From Promethearchaeota archaeon (GTDB lineage Archaea; Asgardarchaeota; Lokiarchaeia; Sigyniarchaeales; SOKP01): a DNA stretch of 64,000 bases. Positions 4,983-12,836 of the stretch are shown one piece after another (positions within the stretch are counted from its first letter, which is position 1; every line of letters starts with the position of its first letter). Position numbers and translations under genes: made by a program. Under the pieces are notes generated by a model. The model was not told where the DNA came from and did not search any database. It saw only the letters and a list, made by a program, of their open reading frames with translations. The stretch lies in assembly GCA_016839765.1 (NCBI GenBank), contig JAEOTP010000043.1:119655-183654 (forward strand), read 5' to 3'.

Positions 4983-6086
4983 TTAATATTTTGAAGGAGT
5001 TTTAGATTTGATTTTATATTTTGGTATCTCTTGAACTTTTTTCAATTCTTTCTCAAAATCTCTTTTTTCTCTAAGGAACCTCTCTTTATCTCTTTCTAAT
5101 TTTTCTCTTTCTCTTCTAATAGCATTTTTTTCAGTGTCTATCATCGACTTTTCTTTTACTAAATGCTTATAATCATTATTTAATCTTTTTTGTTTATCTT
5201 CCAAATCACGAATCTTGCGTTCTAATGAATAATAAGTATCTTCCGCTTTAGGAACTTTCCTATTTAGCTCTTTTAATCTTGTTTCTTGTTGTTGTTTCTT
5301 TTTTTCCAAATTTCTTACATCATTTTCAATTTTATCTCTAAAGTTTTCCAAATCTTCTTTTTTTTTATCAATTTCACGAGCTTTAAGATTTAGATCTTTT
5401 TTTTTAATACGATTTTTTTCTTTTTCATCTTTTAATTTTCTTTTTTCATCATCAATCCGGTTTTTTTCATCAAAAATGTTTTTTCTTAGATCATTGATTT
5501 CTTTATTTAAATTATCCCTTTCTTTTGAAAGATGTTTGATTTCATTTCTCAACTCCATTAATTCATTTTCTAATTTTTCAATTGTTCTCTCTAATGCATT
5601 TTCTCTTCTTTCCATTCCAGGTATTTTGGTTTTAATCTCTTTAACACGAACTTCTGCTCTTGCTTTTTCTCTTTCTAAATATTTTTTCTCACTTTCTAAA
5701 GCGTCTTTTAGTCTATCTAACTTTTCTTGATATTTATCTAGGTCGGCATTTTTTTGATCTAACTCTCTTTCTTTTAAACTTAGATTATTTCTATGTTGCT
5801 TTATTCCATTTTTCATTCTTTCTAATTCACTTTTTAACTTTTCACGTTGGTTTAGAAGATTTTTGACTTCAAGTTCTTTCTCTTTTCTCTTTTTTTCAAG
5901 TTCTTTTATATTATCTTGATACCCTTCAAGTTTTTTAATAACCTTTTCCCAATCGCTTTTTTCTCTGTTTAACTTTATCCTTTCTTCCTTTATCTTTTTA
6001 AGTAGTCTTGTATCTTGAATAATTTCGATTTCTTCTTCTGGCGTTTTCTCTCGAATTTGATACTTAGGAATTGGTTTATCATTCAT
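4983..6086 (-). CDS. Long coiled-coil protein with a repeated terminal IPKY-x4-KTP motif
   Basis: K/E/R/L-rich heptads throughout; IPKYQIREKTP at N-terminus, IPKYKIKSKTP at C-terminus. Confidence 0.85.
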   Translation of the reverse strand: MNDKPIPKYQIREKTPEEEIEIIQDTRLLKKIKEERIKLNREKSDWEKVIKKLEGYQDNIKELEKKRKEKELEVKNLLNQREKLKSELERMKNGIKQHRNNLSLKERELDQKNADLDKYQEKLDRLKDALESEKKYLEREKARAEVRVKEIKTKIPGMERRENALERTIEKLENELMELRNEIKHLSKERDNLNKEINDLRKNIFDEKNRIDDEKRKLKDEKEKNRIKKKDLNLKAREIDKKKEDLENFRDKIENDVRNLEKKKQQQETRLKELNRKVPKAEDTYYSLERKIRDLEDKQKRLNNDYKHLVKEKSMIDTEKNAIRREREKLERDKERFLREKRDFEKELKKVQEIPKYKIKSKTPSKY

Positions 6087-6290: not shown

Positions 6291-6719
6291 ATGGAGTTTG
6301 ATGAAGAATTTGATGAAGAGTTTGATGATGAATTTGATGAAGAACTTGATGAAGAACTTGATGAAGAATTAGAAGAACCTTCTGCAAAAACTCCAGCGGA
6401 AGAGGTTAAAGCTAAAACTCCAGCGGAAGAGGTTAAAGCTAAAACTCCAGCAGTTAAAGCTTTTTCGGCAGGAAAAAAGATTTCAGTTTATTTTATGTCG
6501 ACAATAGGTCCTGGTGAAAAAAAGCAAAAATTACTCATAAACACAGGAAACAGCGTTGGGGATATAAAAGAGACTGTTGCGAATTTATTTGGTTTAGATC
6601 CTGCTGATTTTCATTTATCTTCAGGTGGAATTACCATGGATGAGAGTTCAAATGTAAGTGAATATAACGTGAATGATGGAGAAGATATACTATTAATTCC
6701 AGCAAGTACTGCTGGTTAA
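6291..6719 (+). CDS. Ubiquitin-like (beta-grasp) protein 1 with acidic repeated N-tail, C-terminus PASTAG
   Basis: Ubl pattern SVGDIKETV...FHLSSGGITMDESSNVSEYNVNDGEDILLI (compare ubiquitin TIENVKAKI...[29 protein letters not shown]); AGGTG RBS upstream. Confidence 0.85.
   Translation: MEFDEEFDEEFDDEFDEELDEELDEELEEPSAKTPAEEVKAKTPAEEVKAKTPAVKAFSAGKKISVYFMSTIGPGEKKQKLLINTGNSVGDIKETVANLFGLDPADFHLSSGGITMDESSNVSEYNVNDGEDILLIPASTAG
6297..6451 (+). repeat. Intragenic tandem repeats: degenerate 12-bp units (F/L-D-E-E), then 27-bp units AAAACTCCAGCGGAAGAGGTTAAAGCT x2.4
   Basis: 27-bp units at 6387-6413 and 6414-6440, partial at 6441-6451. Confidence 0.9.
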
Positions 6720-6736
6720 AAAAAATCATTATCCTA

Positions 6737-7546
6737 TTAGTTTTTCTTTTTTAAATTTTTTTCTTTTCTTGATGGAATCAGAGCAATTTCGTCATCATCA
6801 TCAATAGCATAATCTTTTATTTGTGAGTTTTCATGCAATAATATTCCTCCAGAGGATAAAAGAAAATCTTCTAAATTATAGTCAAATAATGTTCCAATTC
6901 TTTCTTTAACACTAAATATTAATTCTGTTGTATCAATTATAATGATTTTTGTTTTTTCACCTGGCTCAACTAATGATCTTATATAAACTCGTATCTGGTC
7001 TTCCTTTTCAATAAAATTTGTAGGAGGTGTATAAATTATCCCCTCGTCAGTCTTATCCCTGTTTTTCAACATATTTTCGATTAATATTTTTCTCTCGTGT
7101 TTATCAAAATACAACATTTCTCTGATAAACATTATTTTATCCATTTTTGATAATTCTAAAAGATTTATTTTTTCTAATTCTTCCCCACTAAACACAGAAA
7201 AAATATATTTATTAATTATTTCCATATTATCATATGATTCATTTGATTCAACATAATCTTCTATTGAAGGCATGACATCAATATAATCCTCAATAAGATC
7301 AATAGGTTTTTTTTTAATCGATTTTTGTTTTTTGACATATTTTTTCTCGCTTTTCCTCTCATCCTCACTACTCGCAGATTGAATAATTGTATAGATAGTA
7401 CTGGTGGATAGTACTGAGACACTACCGATAACTAGAAAGAGAAATAAAGGAATACTTTCTATATGGAATAAGAAAAAAGCCATATAGATAATTACAAAAA
7501 TAATATAAAGGGTTATAATACTTAAAACTCTATTTTTTTTCTTCAT
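6737..7546 (-). CDS. Membrane-anchored Ubl-domain protein (2 N-terminal TM, C-terminal Ubl without terminal Gly)
   Basis: Two hydrophobic segments; C-terminal VYIRSLVEPGEK...SVKERIGTLF...DFLLSSGGILLHENSQIKDYAIDDDDEIALIP is paralogous to the neighbouring Ubls. Confidence 0.85.
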   Translation of the reverse strand: MKKKNRVLSIITLYIIFVIIYMAFFLFHIESIPLFLFLVIGSVSVLSTSTIYTIIQSASSEDERKSEKKYVKKQKSIKKKPIDLIEDYIDVMPSIEDYVESNESYDNMEIINKYIFSVFSGEELEKINLLELSKMDKIMFIREMLYFDKHERKILIENMLKNRDKTDEGIIYTPPTNFIEKEDQIRVYIRSLVEPGEKTKIIIIDTTELIFSVKERIGTLFDYNLEDFLLSSGGILLHENSQIKDYAIDDDDEIALIPSRKEKNLKKKN

Positions 7547-7601
7547 GATTTTTTATTAAATTATTATCTAAATTTCTAATATATAATTTAAAATTTAAAT
7601 T

Positions 7602-7626
7602 CCATTGGAATGAATTTGAAGTTTTT
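7602..7626 (-). promoter_or_regulatory. 25-bp element, left arm of inverted repeat, upstream of the TM-Ubl gene
   Basis: CCATTGGAATGAATTTGAAGTTTTT is the exact reverse complement of 8467-8491; overlaps dyad ATTCCA-T-TGGAAT at 7599-7611. Confidence 0.7.
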
Positions 7627-8466: not shown

Positions 8467-8491
8467 AAAAACTTCAAATTCATTCCAATGG
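8467..8491 (+). promoter_or_regulatory. 25-bp element, right arm of inverted repeat, upstream of the Ubl2-E1-E2-JAB-RING genes
   Basis: AAAAACTTCAAATTCATTCCAATGG, 81-105 bp before the Ubl2 ATG. Confidence 0.7.
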
Positions 8492-8571
8492 GTTTTATAA
8501 TATCGTTTTAATGCGATTTTATTAAACTTAAAAAATAAAAAATTACAAAATAAAAAAAAGTCGTGAAATAA

Positions 8572-8898
8572 ATGAGTTTTGAAGAAGATTTTGATGAGGA
8601 ATTAGAACCTGTTAAATCTAAAACACCATCTACCAAAATTCCTTCAGCAGGAAAGAAATTGACTTTATACTTTACGTCAACCATTGGACCTGGTGAAAAG
8701 AAGGAAAAATTAACGGTAAATGATGCTAATCATGTAAGTGATATTAAGGAAACATTAGGAAATTTATATGGCCTTGATCCTAATGATTTTCACTTATCAT
8801 CTGGTGGAGTTACTATGGATGAAAATAGTCAATTAAAAGATTATAATTTAAATGATGGCGACGATATTCTTTTGATTCCTGCGAGTACTGCTGGGTAA
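8572..8898 (+). CDS. Ubiquitin-like protein 2, acidic N-tail, C-terminus PASTAG
   Basis: Close paralogue of 6291..6719 (shared STIGPGEKK, DIKET, DFHLSSGG, DILLIPASTAG); directly upstream of E1. Confidence 0.88.
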   Translation: MSFEEDFDEELEPVKSKTPSTKIPSAGKKLTLYFTSTIGPGEKKEKLTVNDANHVSDIKETLGNLYGLDPNDFHLSSGGVTMDENSQLKDYNLNDGDDILLIPASTAG

Positions 8899-8977
8899 AC
8901 TTATATAATTTTCTACATAAAGTATAATATGAAGGCATTAAGTCCTTCATTTTTTTTTATTTTTATTATTATTATTA

Positions 8978-10213
8978 ATGGTGATAATATTGGATAAAGA
9001 TTCAGATTTTTTTGCAAAAGCATTGTCAGTAAAAGAGAGAGATTTGTATGATCGCCAGTTTCGTCTCGAGGGCTGGTCCCAAAAATTAGTAAAAAACTCG
9101 AGAGTGTTAATTGTTGGTGTAGGAGGTTTAGGATGTGAAATTGCTAAAAATTTAGCCATGTTAGGGTTAGGCCAATTAGATCTTGTTGATTTAGATATCA
9201 TTGAACATTCTAATTTGAATCGTCAAATTCTTTTCACAGATGCGAAGATAGGAGAACCTAAGGCAGTTGTTGCTGCTCGAAAACTAAAGGAAATTAACCC
9301 TAATATTATTGTTAAGGGATATCATACATCTCTAGAAAGATTAAATCCTGCATTATATCAAGCTGCTGAAGTTGTAATTGGGGGCCTTGATTCAATGAAT
9401 GCGCGCTTGAACTTAAATGCTCAATGCATAAGATTTAGAAAACCACTCGTAGATGCAGGAGTATCAGGTTATCATGGTCATATTTACACTATCTTTCCGT
9501 ATCAAAATGCTTGTTATGAGTGCAATCCATTACCAGTAAGTGAAAGTGATGAAATGGCAGCTTGTACAGTTGTTGGAGTCCCCAGAAAAAGGATTCATTG
9601 TGTTTTTAAAGGAGATATGGCATTTAAAGAAAAGTTTGATAGAGATCCAAATCCAAAAGATATAAATGATATTAAATTTATTCAAAAAGTTGCAAATGAA
9701 TTGGTCAATAAACATAATTTCTTACCTGAATACACTAAAGATGATATCATAAAAATCATTGATAGGCATGATCCTGGAATAATTACCATAAATGCAGTTA
9801 TTTCTGCTTTACAATCACATGAGGTAGTAAAAATTCTTCATTGGAAAAAAGGTCATAAAGGATTAGGAGAACCTATTAAAAATTATGTGATTTTTAATGC
9901 CATGACGATGAAATTATACCATATTGAAAAAACGAGAAATCCAGAATGTTCTCAATGTGGTAAATCTGTTAGAAGAGTAGCTATAAAAATGAGGTCTCAA
10001 TCGCCATGTATAAATATAATTAAGATATTAAAGAAAAACGGATTTGAATTGGAGCCTGATTTTGAACCTGTGCTAACCTTATTGGATTTCAATGATATTA
10101 AAGTAATTGATTTAGAACAGAATACTATTGAAAACGGTTTAAGAAATTACGAATTTATTACAGTTGCAGGGTTTAAGGGTGGAGAAATTTATGTAACCTT
10201 AAAATTAAAATGA
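8978..10213 (+). CDS. E1 Ubl-activating enzyme (ThiF/UBA family, Uba2/Uba3-like)
   Basis: YDRQFRL, GVGGLGCE, DLDIIEHSNLNRQ, CYEC, catalytic-Cys-like CTVVGVPRKRIHC, TINAVISA, CSQC. Confidence 0.92.
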   Translation: MVIILDKDSDFFAKALSVKERDLYDRQFRLEGWSQKLVKNSRVLIVGVGGLGCEIAKNLAMLGLGQLDLVDLDIIEHSNLNRQILFTDAKIGEPKAVVAARKLKEINPNIIVKGYHTSLERLNPALYQAAEVVIGGLDSMNARLNLNAQCIRFRKPLVDAGVSGYHGHIYTIFPYQNACYECNPLPVSESDEMAACTVVGVPRKRIHCVFKGDMAFKEKFDRDPNPKDINDIKFIQKVANELVNKHNFLPEYTKDDIIKIIDRHDPGIITINAVISALQSHEVVKILHWKKGHKGLGEPIKNYVIFNAMTMKLYHIEKTRNPECSQCGKSVRRVAIKMRSQSPCINIIKILKKNGFELEPDFEPVLTLLDFNDIKVIDLEQNTIENGLRNYEFITVAGFKGGEIYVTLKLK

Positions 10214-10319: not shown

Positions 10320-10847
10320 ATGAGTATAAGAAGTAGTCGCGTTTCCCGCGATTTTGCTGGATTAAAAAAAATGCTTAAAGTTGGTACTATAGTTCAACTA
10401 AAACCATTTAATTCTAAAAAAAAGAGCATTGATCATTTAGCTATCACAATTAAAGGCCCTAAAGGTACTGTCTTTGCTGGGGGACTTTTTAAACTAGAAA
10501 TGAGATTCCCTGCTCAGTATCCTAAGCAGCCTCCTTTTGTAAGAATGCATACTCCAATTTGGCATCCAAATTTTTGGCCAAAACCAAGTGAATACAAAGG
10601 AAAGAGAAATATTTGTCTAGCATTAATAGACCCTTCCTTAATTGGGAAAAAGGGTGGATGGAGTCCTTCAAAAACCGCTGTTACAGTAGTTCAAGCAATA
10701 ATTGCTATGTTAAATACCCGGGGTAAATATGTAAACCCAACAGATGTTTTTAATAAAAAAGCAGCAATAGAAATGATGAAAAATCCTAAATTTTTCGAGA
10801 AAAAAGTTAAAAATTTAGTGAAGAAGTACGCTAAGAACAAGTGGTGA
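10320..10847 (+). CDS. E2 Ubl-conjugating enzyme (UBC fold)
   Basis: GPKGTVFAGGLFKLEMRFPAQYPKQPP, WHPN, NICL (catalytic Cys), WSPS. Confidence 0.93.
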   Translation: MSIRSSRVSRDFAGLKKMLKVGTIVQLKPFNSKKKSIDHLAITIKGPKGTVFAGGLFKLEMRFPAQYPKQPPFVRMHTPIWHPNFWPKPSEYKGKRNICLALIDPSLIGKKGGWSPSKTAVTVVQAIIAMLNTRGKYVNPTDVFNKKAAIEMMKNPKFFEKKVKNLVKKYAKNKW

Positions 10848-10854
10848 AATCATA

Positions 10855-11661
10855 ATGAATATTGATGAGAAGAAAAACAATTTAATCAAAGAAGCAATAA
10901 AGCAAAAAATTAAAGAGAAAATTAAAAAAGAATTACTTGAAGAGATATATACCGAATTACAATTAGAAGAAGAATTAAGGGAAGAAATAACTTCTGAACT
11001 TATTGAAACCCAGCCATTAGAGCATTCAGAAACAGTTAAAGCCAAACTTGAACCCATACCAATGGAACCGGTAAAAACATATGCTAAGAATGATAAAGCT
11101 GAAGCAAAAGTAGCTCTAACAGTAAAAGCTGTCCTTAAGATCGCTAGTCATTCATTAAAATATGCTCATTCTAAAATTCGAAGAGAGGAATGGGTTGAAG
11201 TGATAGGATTACTCGCTGGAAAATTTGACAATACTAAAGGAGTCCTTCATGTGGAAGATGCCTATCCAATGGGACATGGTACAGCAGTTTATGCTGAAAT
11301 TAAAGATTATAAAAATTATGTTAGAGCTTTTAAAGACATAAAAAAGAACAGCCTTTTTATTTGTGGATGGTATCATTCCCATCCTTCTTATGGATGTTTT
11401 ATGTCTAAAGAAGATTTAGGAACTCAAGCAAGATACCAAAAATTATGGGATAAAGCAATTGCGCTAGTTATAGATCCATACCAAATTGATGGCACTTCAT
11501 TGGGTTTTGAAATCTATCGTGCGAATTTTAAAACAAATAAGTGGTTTTCAGTACCATTTGATATTAAAGGATATTTAGATGTGAGAATGTTGCCGGAAAT
11601 TTTGGAATTTATGAATCCAATCATTGAAGGTAAACCTGTTTATTTAGAATATGATGAATGA
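10855..11661 (+). CDS. JAB1/MPN+ (JAMM) metalloprotease, Rpn11/CSN5-like, with N-terminal coiled coil
   Basis: EVIGLL...GWYHSHPSYGCFMSKED...ALVIDP. Confidence 0.92.
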   Translation: MNIDEKKNNLIKEAIKQKIKEKIKKELLEEIYTELQLEEELREEITSELIETQPLEHSETVKAKLEPIPMEPVKTYAKNDKAEAKVALTVKAVLKIASHSLKYAHSKIRREEWVEVIGLLAGKFDNTKGVLHVEDAYPMGHGTAVYAEIKDYKNYVRAFKDIKKNSLFICGWYHSHPSYGCFMSKEDLGTQARYQKLWDKAIALVIDPYQIDGTSLGFEIYRANFKTNKWFSVPFDIKGYLDVRMLPEILEFMNPIIEGKPVYLEYDE

Positions 11662-11684: not shown

Positions 11685-12836
11685 ATGGTTAAAAAGAAGG
11701 GTTTAGCAATAATATTTATTGTTTTTCTAATAATTGGTATAATACATAGTTCTATCTCAATTTCCTTAAATATTTTTTTAACTTGGATATTTATTGGTTT
11801 ATGGATAATTTTTACGATTAAGATTTTTGAAAATATAAAGCAGCATCGCGAATTCAATTCACCACATAATACTGCTTTTTTTGTAATCATCCCTTTATTC
11901 ATCGGAATTTTTTACTCCATTTGGGGGTATTTTACAGGTATATTGGGTGAAAACCTTCTTGAAGGCTCAAATATATATTTTAGTTGGTGGAGTCTCATTT
12001 TTGGATTTCCATTTATAATATATGGTTCTTATTCTTTATATCGTTGTTTTAAGAAATATAATGTAATCTATTTTGGAACCAAGTCAGTAAAAGCTAGGAC
12101 ATTAGGATATATTTTAACTTCCACAGTTATTCTTTTTATAATAATTTATTGGGTAATGTTTTATAGTGTTATAGAATTTTATGATTCTCTATTAACCCCT
12201 CTTCATTTTTCTTTAAATCTAAATCTTCTATTATTATTCATTGCATCATTATTGATCTTTATTATTTTTGGATTAGCTAGTTCACATAGAACACTTCCAA
12301 CATTAACTCGGGATTACATTGCTCAACGTACTAGAAGAATAAATTCATTAAGTACTCCTACAATTCAAAGGCAAAGGGTACGTACAACAACTAGAACTAC
12401 TCCATCACCTTCAAGAAGAACTGTGACTCAAACAACGAGGTCTAGATCTCATTCATCGAGAACAACACCTACTTCCCAAAGGCAAAAAACTAGAACAACA
12501 AAAACTACTAGAACTAGAGCCGTAAAAACAACTTCAAAAGCTATAAATTTAGATAAATATAAACCAAGAGCATCATATCTGTCAGAAGATGATTTTAAAT
12601 GTATTTTTTGTTTTAAGCTGCCAAAACTACCCGATGATAATGGCAGAGGGATAATTGTATGTCCAAATTGTAGATATCCGGCTCATGCTGATGAATTTAA
12701 AGATTGGCTAAGAACCTCAAATCTCTGTTCAAGATGTAGTACTCCCATTCCATCCAGATTTAAACATAATCCTAGAATAATTAGTATAAAAAATTATCAA
12801 ATAGTCTATAGGCATTTTTTAAAGAAGAAAAGATAA
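11685..12836 (+). CDS. Multi-pass membrane protein with C-terminal RING-variant zinc finger (putative E3 ligase)
   Basis: About 6 hydrophobic segments, R/T/S-rich linker, C-x2-C-x16-C-x2-C-x4-H-x2-E-x3-W-x6-C-x2-C; last gene of the E1/E2/JAB run. Confidence 0.72.
   Translation: MVKKKGLAIIFIVFLIIGIIHSSISISLNIFLTWIFIGLWIIFTIKIFENIKQHREFNSPHNTAFFVIIPLFIGIFYSIWGYFTGILGENLLEGSNIYFSWWSLIFGFPFIIYGSYSLYRCFKKYNVIYFGTKSVKARTLGYILTSTVILFIIIYWVMFYSVIEFYDSLLTPLHFSLNLNLLLLFIASLLIFIIFGLASSHRTLPTLTRDYIAQRTRRINSLSTPTIQRQRVRTTTRTTPSPSRRTVTQTTRSRSHSSRTTPTSQRQKTRTTKTTRTRAVKTTSKAINLDKYKPRASYLSEDDFKCIFCFKLPKLPDDNGRGIIVCPNCRYPAHADEFKDWLRTSNLCSRCSTPIPSRFKHNPRIISIKNYQIVYRHFLKKKR

Follow-up and report, generated by a model that had tools for sequence, protein, structure and literature searches.

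Within the window, the whole 64,000-nucleotide stretch of Lokiarchaeial DNA analysed here, a gene for a membrane protein that ends in a ubiquitin-like domain (Ubl) lies among genes for free Ubl modifiers and their putative enzymes, which raises the question of what a ubiquitin fold built into a membrane protein does in such company. The gene order is coiled coil (-), UblA (+), TM-MID-Ubl (-) and wHTH (-), followed by UblB, E1, E2, JAB and a multi-pass RING-finger protein, all (+) (Table 1). The reading preferred here, to which we give a probability of roughly 0.6, is that TM-MID-Ubl acts from the membrane as the anti-activator in a two-gene switch of Lokiarchaea, where it exerts feedback on UblB and uses its own Ubl as an intracellular input. 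Literature searches, confined mostly to work outside the subscription literature, returned no papers on the TM-MID-Ubl protein, MID or the MID-wHTH pair.

Table 1. Features of the locus, with positions in the window
Feature	Positions	Strand	Basis
UblA, second free modifier; element absent upstream	6291..6719	(+)	ORF, matrix scores
TM-MID-Ubl gene, 269 aa, proposed membrane anti-activator	6737..7546	(-)	ORF and homologues
Basic tail in place of conjugation motif	6740..6772	(-)	sequence, homologue alignment
Ubiquitin-fold domain (residues 184-258), paralogue of STAG-ending modifiers	6773..6997	(-)	sequence and Foldseek
MID, undescribed helical domain (residues 83-163), predicted wHTH binder	7058..7300	(-)	conservation, model, gene pairing
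TM2 (residues 32-55), Ser/Thr-rich, like the single TM of type-I MID receptors	7382..7453	(-)	conservation, hydropathy
TM1 (residues 7-27), preceded by basic N-terminus, N-in	7466..7528	(-)	hydropathy, AF2, charge
Element copy 1, TCA-N8-CCA core, by TATA-like box 7593-7599; internal promoter of TM-MID-Ubl	7602..7626	(-)	site conservation
wHTH, winged-helix regulator, 223 aa	7631..8302	(-)	HTH profiles, alignment, model
Element copy 2, by TATA box 8493-8501; UblB promoter	8467..8491	(+)	site conservation
UblB, free modifier ending STAG, proposed regulated target	8572..8898	(+)	ORF, orthologous loci
Terminator-like hairpin and T-run between UblB and E1	8929..8960	(+)	sequence
E1, ThiF domain, putative catalytic Cys196	8978..10213	(+)	profile
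E2, HPN motif, Cys99	10320..10847	(+)	profile
JAB/JAMM protease, intact metal-binding motif	10855..11661	(+)	profile
TM-RING, multi-pass membrane protein with C-terminal RING-spaced zinc finger	11685..12836	(+)	sequence

Conservation and membrane anchor of TM-MID-Ubl

TM-MID-Ubl is a real and conserved protein. Its homologues numbered 410, and the full-length form was present in 46 of the 301 Asgard genomes searched, every one of them from the window's own family. The TM-linked Ubls formed a single clade (SH-aLRT 99 in a quick, midpoint-rooted tree); this clade, together with the conservation, excluded a chance product or a decaying duplicate.

The two transmembrane helices read by an earlier note on this DNA were borne out by two hydrophobic N-terminal helices with Kyte-Doolittle peaks of 2.68 and 2.18 and by helices at residues 3-26 and 32-49 of the AF2 model, and the resulting hairpin supports the membrane tether proposed there. 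TM2, the hydrophobicity of which is only marginal, is the most conserved segment of the protein, with a majority frequency of 0.90 across 116 full-length homologues, and resembles the single TM of sibling MID receptors.

MID and the MID receptors

Between the hairpin and the Ubl lies the stretch of about 120 amino acids that had been taken for a linker; the stretch is there, but it holds a conserved and folded domain, MID, in which 21 of 79 columns (residues 83-161) are at least 95% conserved and for which five helices were modelled (pLDDT 86). The MID of the window had no match in Pfam and no sequence match in the PDB, while a fold search returned generic three-helix bundles at best (VIA Z 5.3), covering only model residues 37-87, and a search of the Atlas gave TM values of at most 0.44 and no feature match. 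On these comparisons MID appears to be a domain without earlier description, which does not make its fold as such a new one.

The MID profile had matches in 59 of 301 genomes, nearly all of the window's family, a single genome containing as many as 15 copies, and MID occurred in 107 clusters of a large sequence library. Outside the TM-MID-Ubl locus it is mostly the C-terminal tail past the last TM of large surface proteins, the outer domains of which are WD40, beta-helix or GH9/fn3, and this position implies that MID is cytoplasmic. A RING-spaced finger was found in 26 of the 107 library representatives, its best PDB matches being the RINGs of Mdm2/Mdm4, RBBP6, RNF4 and TFIIH p44, all weak (E 0.0025). 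The fingers suggest a receptor family switched by Ubl tagging, of which TM-MID-Ubl would be a pre-tagged member. Examples of the finger beside MID are found at L084:8315-9133, L084:7262-8110, L033, L085 and L117.

The topology of the MID receptors and the charge bias of TM-MID-Ubl, the homologues of which carry on average 3.5 Lys/Arg in residues 1-8, 0.5 in the loop and 8.7 past TM2, lead us to infer that both termini face inward, with MID and Ubl in the cytoplasm. The proposal of the earlier note would have fallen had the Ubl faced outward, and the inferred topology places it inside.

Pairing of MID with a winged-helix regulator

The wHTH protein consists of an N-terminal domain (about residues 8-68) and two ArsR-like HTHs (about 73-135 and 148-212), and matches ArsR/SdpR-type HTH profiles, below cut-off in NCBIfam; the partner of MID is a winged-helix protein, not a sigma-70 ECF factor. 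Its gene lies directly upstream of TM-MID-Ubl on the same strand in all 37 full orthologous loci, and at non-Ubl loci 37 of the 46 MID genes lie within 500 nt of a wHTH paralogue on the same strand, five of the other nine being cut by a contig or locus edge; locus counts of this kind, like the site counts for the promoter element, overstate significance, as kin genomes are not independent. TM-MID-Ubl has a membrane anchor and a cytoplasmic domain and is encoded together with a transcription factor, as is expected of an anti-factor. A main function as adaptor or decoy for the E1 and E2, or as partner of TM-RING, which the earlier note had proposed, finds no support here, the constant partner (37/37) being wHTH and not the enzymes.

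Sequence distances of MID and wHTH were correlated over 26 non-Ubl pairs, with a rho of 0.81 against 0.41 as the highest value among permutations, a correlation to which shared descent contributes. The model of the MID-wHTH complex scored 0.79, the best of three controls scoring 0.00. Of 80 solved complexes 58 attain this mark, as do 2 of 110 mismatched pairs. The calibration is only rough for the alignments used here, and close cousins of a true partner may pass the mark too. Model runs shared at least 93% of contacts, with a partner pLDDT of 86-87. The modelled contacts of MID fall on wHTH residues 12-76 and 103-117, with the near-invariant F116 of MID at the centre of the interface and the invariant W109 of wHTH touched. 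Residues 103-117 are presumably the recognition helix of an ArsR-type HTH, so that bound MID should hinder DNA binding. Together, the complex model and the gene pairing indicate that MID probably binds the neighbouring wHTH.

One of the 37 paired non-Ubl loci encodes a MID-wHTH fusion, a 1089-aa protein (L116:2247-5516, (-)) in which a beta-helix outer domain, TM, MID and wHTH follow one another as a one-piece form of the switch. Among further wHTH paralogues (G000 C15:4206-5204 and C57:139715-142268), one has its own N-terminal TM and the other lies behind a multi-pass membrane protein, the helical tail of which resembles MID by eye but gave no score.

A promoter element shared by TM-MID-Ubl and UblB

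Upstream of TM-MID-Ubl and UblB stand two identical copies of a 25-bp element, with no third copy within four mismatches in the 3.3-Mb genome. The element is kept upstream of TM-MID-Ubl in 37/37 orthologous loci and of UblB in 33/33, always with a TATA-like box directly downstream. The earlier note had assigned it to TM-MID-Ubl and the operon in common; the second copy is indeed identical, but it lies before UblB, with a hairpin ahead of E1. Co-regulation of TM-MID-Ubl with a Ubl gene is upheld by that copy. As the hairpin splits UblB from E1, control of E1, E2, JAB and RING by the same element may occur but is only a possibility.

With a matrix trained solely on the two orthologous sites, scores above 10 were obtained for the upstream regions of 11 of 39 unrelated MID genes and of 7 of 27 secreted neighbours; among 2465 genes of this genome, 10 exceeded that value. 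Six unlinked UblB copies, all from genomes that have the module, scored 36-43. The maximum was 5.8 for 21 free Ubl genes (one of them with a short upstream region) in 18 genomes that yielded no module, and all 32 UblA upstream regions fell below 0. One genome (G030) provides an internal control, with 19-29 at its wHTH/MID loci and -2 at its Ubl operon. Since the element occurs at unrelated MID loci and was not seen at the Ubl genes of the 18 genomes that yielded no module, it follows the wHTH family rather than the Ubl operon, and its assignment as the binding site of that family is well supported by these site comparisons. In the genus of L038 and L039 both copies share a change from CCA to CCT in the second half-site, which is consistent with one shared factor.

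Two other roles for the element were rejected. An inversion site, suggested by the opposite orientation of the two copies on either side of wHTH, is excluded because single copies also precede unlinked UblB genes, and the orientation of wHTH is constant in 37/37 loci; a site of a global stress regulon is excluded by the presence of two strong genomic sites, all others being at shuffle level.

The element is an imperfect direct repeat, the second half-site of which ends about 5-6 nt ahead of the TATA box, and the BRE positions at its promoters do not match VRAAA. Activators in archaea have their sites immediately upstream of a weak BRE (PMC5937170), and both the site position and the mismatch to VRAAA make wHTH the likelier to be an activator. 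The element also abuts the BRE, and a repressing wHTH, which is possible, would flip the logic. A switch of the same parts with another sign or input can accordingly be drawn, in which wHTH represses by covering the BRE, or TM2 is cut by an intramembrane protease and the Ubl serves as an allosteric or oligomerisation module. The closeness of the second half-site to the TATA box would suit the former, while the small residues and high conservation of TM2 and the M50 proteases encoded by the genome would suit the latter. We consider this version unlikely: the departure from VRAAA suits promoters that depend on an activator (PMC5937170), and cleavage of TM2 alone would release MID with wHTH still bound. 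The induction of a factor's own inhibitor is, moreover, the usual logic of anti-sigma systems.

The Ubl domain

The Ubl of TM-MID-Ubl has the beta-grasp fold of the ubiquitin clade. It is 39% identical to each of UblA and UblB and contains all the motifs from which the earlier note placed it in their family. Foldseek matched it to ubiquitin, NEDD8, ISG15 and SUMO (rmsd about 1.3-1.5 A), with only ubiquitin-clade structures among the matches listed, while the Pfam ubiquitin profile hit the protein below cut-off (E 2.9e-4). The same note's claim of a non-conjugatable Ubl with a glycine-free end is likewise supported: the final glycine, G234, lies within the fold, and a STAG-type C-terminal motif is absent from all 116 full-length homologues, which have a basic tail instead. 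Six of the 116 have one glycine among the last six residues, at varying positions and terminal in one, so that no glycine stands at a fixed distance past the last strand as it does in conjugatable modifiers. Conservation of the Ubl domain equals or slightly exceeds that of MID in the same homologues.

In ubiquitin, R42, Q49, R72 and the tail are contacts of the E1. The equivalent positions are invariant in the free Ubls and altered in TM-MID-Ubl, which retains the face equivalent to the L8 loop, I44 and V70-L71 of ubiquitin in common with them (residues S191, P195-K198, S231, G233-G234 and L256-P258). R186/R190 and an acidic stretch at 250-253 are near-invariant features specific to its own Ubl. 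The kept face and altered positions lean slightly towards a domain read by Ubl receptors rather than an E1 decoy; the genome has four Cdc48-family genes.

A decoy or adaptor like the MUBs, in which the Ubl would bind E1, E2 or JAB at the membrane and tune conjugation with the link to wHTH secondary, could draw on that common face, on the co-regulation with UblB and on the inhibition of E2 charging by MUBs through backside binding (PMC4996978). Such a role would leave MID and its constant pairing with wHTH without explanation, and the altered E1-contact positions count against it, so that we regard it as improbable. Binding of the Ubl to a component of the pathway may nevertheless be the route by which the switch receives its signal.

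A Tyr-Thr-Pro-Pro motif (residues 172-175, window about 7020-7035, (-)) is conserved ahead of strand 1 of the Ubl, at the spacing that Lys-Thr-Pro has in the UblB tail, so that a candidate acceptor lysine is replaced by tyrosine (98% conserved). A search for longer fusions of the Ubl region of TM-MID-Ubl found none, which is weak evidence. Ubl of the STAG type does occur as a C-terminal fusion that keeps its glycine (L034, L035, L036, L041 and L042), the part ahead of it being a Roadblock-like domain, a coiled-coil region with Cys, or a domain some 400-500 aa long. The free modifier family, to which UblA and UblB belong, ends in an invariant Ser-Thr-Ala-Gly, sometimes followed by one to three residues, and has Ala at the position of ubiquitin R72, like NEDD8. 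An identity with UFM1, suggested by the single-glycine end and by PMC12962969, was not supported by profiles: a search of the genome with the Ufm1 profile PF03671 at E up to 10 gave no match, nor did it match any of 26 free Ubls, which all match ubiquitin.

The neighbouring operon and its distribution

The free modifier family was found in 122 of 301 Asgard genomes, and many Asgard genomes that yielded no TM-MID-Ubl do have the E1-E2-JAB-RING operon. Conversely, the wHTH/TM-Ubl/UblB cassette stands apart from E1 and E2 in two genomes (L038 and L039). TM-MID-Ubl is therefore not a core subunit of the pathway, and both observations weigh further against a decoy or adaptor of its enzymes.

High conservation of TM2, the RING-like fingers of many sibling MID proteins and a RING-only gene that follows UblB in the detached cassettes of L038 and L039 could be taken to indicate a subunit of an ERAD-like membrane E3, joined to TM-RING through TM2 and presenting wHTH for Ubl conjugation. 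This seems very improbable, as TM-RING is present in many genomes in which TM-Ubl was not found and TM2 is similar to the TM of siblings whose retrieved loci contain no TM-RING gene.

The coiled-coil gene (window 4983-6086, (-)) is divergent from a free Ubl gene in most of the operons examined from its own and neighbouring families, including those of genomes without the cassette. The simplest history suggested by this gene order is that the coiled coil and the Ubl-E1-E2-JAB-RING operon came first and that TM-Ubl, wHTH and UblB were inserted later. The window's genome also has a second JAB-E1-E2-Ubl cluster, in which the Ubl ends in di-Gly followed by three residues, as well as a third E1 and a third E2; these genes lie at G000 C33:160627-162903 and C23:9987-14028.

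Proposed mechanism and implications

In the preferred anti-activator reading, the TM hairpin would keep MID and Ubl in the cytoplasm, where MID would bind wHTH by gripping its N-terminal domain and contacting the second HTH at the helix that probably recognises DNA. Free wHTH would sit on the element, upstream of a weak BRE/TATA, and activate UblB and perhaps the enzymes behind it; it would also induce its own inhibitor, TM-MID-Ubl, closing a negative loop. This part, from the hairpin topology through MID-wHTH binding to activation via the element, we hold to be quite likely.

The role of the Ubl is a more tentative matter. In the siblings MID is joined to an outside sensor and in many cases also to a RING-like finger, and TM-MID-Ubl bears an uncleavable Ubl inside the cell. 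This Ubl could act as a built-in tag that makes the anti-activator a client of the modifier's reader, with extraction of a Cdc48 or proteasome type, and TM-MID-Ubl would then compete with free Ubl and true conjugates for that reader. Scarcity of the modifier would free wHTH and restore the supply of Ubl. We rate a built-in turnover tag at somewhat less than even odds; against it stands the attachment of the Ubl by its N-terminus, unlike a real conjugate. More speculative still is the wider picture of kinase-free, ubiquitin-coupled receptors in Lokiarchaea, in which proteins composed of sensor, TM, RING-like finger and MID would free the wHTH activator when tagged and destroyed, and TM-MID-Ubl would be the inward, pre-tagged form that meters the modifier pool.

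The control of ubiquitin-like systems and transmembrane signalling in Asgard archaea are largely unexplored, and the locus names a candidate regulator, DNA site, inhibitor and interface residues. As a domain of surface receptors, many with RING-like fingers, MID points to ubiquitin-coupled signalling in prokaryotes. If the proposal is true, the locus would represent a prokaryotic transcriptional feedback on ubiquitin-like supply, independent of eukaryotic loops of the Rpn4/Nrf1 type. The Ubl fusion was found in one Lokiarchaeal family only, and informs on the abilities of Asgard archaea, not directly on the eukaryotic ancestor. What appears to be new is the undescribed domain MID and the TM-MID-Ubl/wHTH pair; an anti-sigma-like regulatory logic was already known.

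Comparison with known systems

The gene set of the adjacent operon is that of the Ub-E1-E2-RING-JAB operons of archaea (Caldiarchaeum, PMC5654768; Asgard, PMC9192718), from which it differs in modifiers that end in Ala-Gly, a multi-pass RING protein and an inserted regulator cassette.

TFB-RF1 (PF1088) of Pyrococcus furiosus is, like wHTH, an archaeal regulator that shares an operon with a small membrane protein (PF1089). The spacing between its site and the weak BRE and TATA downstream is fixed, and it activates this operon, with the gene of the 4-TM protein, as well as a second target (PMC5937170). Its site is a 13-nt palindrome, unlike the imperfect direct repeat found here; PF1089 has four TMs and no known function, and is not known to have been proposed as an anti-activator (PMC5937170), and no Ubl is involved. 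The likeness of the two pairs is one of arrangement.

With MUBs TM-MID-Ubl shares a ubiquitin fold tethered to the membrane without di-Gly; MUBs, however, are about 120 aa, with a prenylated CaaX anchor, and block E1 access by binding the E2 backside and through a lap-bar loop (PMC4996978). TM-MID-Ubl has no such C-terminal box, contains no cysteine, is anchored by an N-terminal TM hairpin and carries a predicted regulator-binding domain.

Herp, Usa1 and TMUB1 are membrane proteins with an integral Ubl, and in feedback of the Nrf1 and Spt23 type transcription of a tagging system is tied to the turnover of a membrane-held factor. TM-MID-Ubl is likewise a membrane protein with an integral Ubl, which faces the cytosol as judged by charge and sibling topology, and a link between transcription and turnover is proposed for it. 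No homology of TM-MID-Ubl to Herp/Usa1/TMUB1, Nrf1 or Spt23 was found, and the likeness would be convergent because TM-MID-Ubl is limited to one Lokiarchaeal family.

The closest parallel in logic is that of ECF sigma factors and their membrane anti-sigma factors (RsgI-SigI, RseA-sigmaE), in which a transcription factor is held by the cytoplasmic domain of a membrane protein encoded alongside it. Both systems have many paralogous pairs with swapped outer sensors (here WD40, beta-helix and GH9/fn3), and in both the factor controls secreted proteins encoded nearby along with its own inhibitor. They differ in that the factor held here is a winged-helix protein at TATA promoters and not a sigma factor, that MID matches no known anti-sigma family, and that TM-MID-Ubl has a Ubl inside in place of an outer sensor. 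TM-MID-Ubl thus probably works like an anti-sigma factor without being one.
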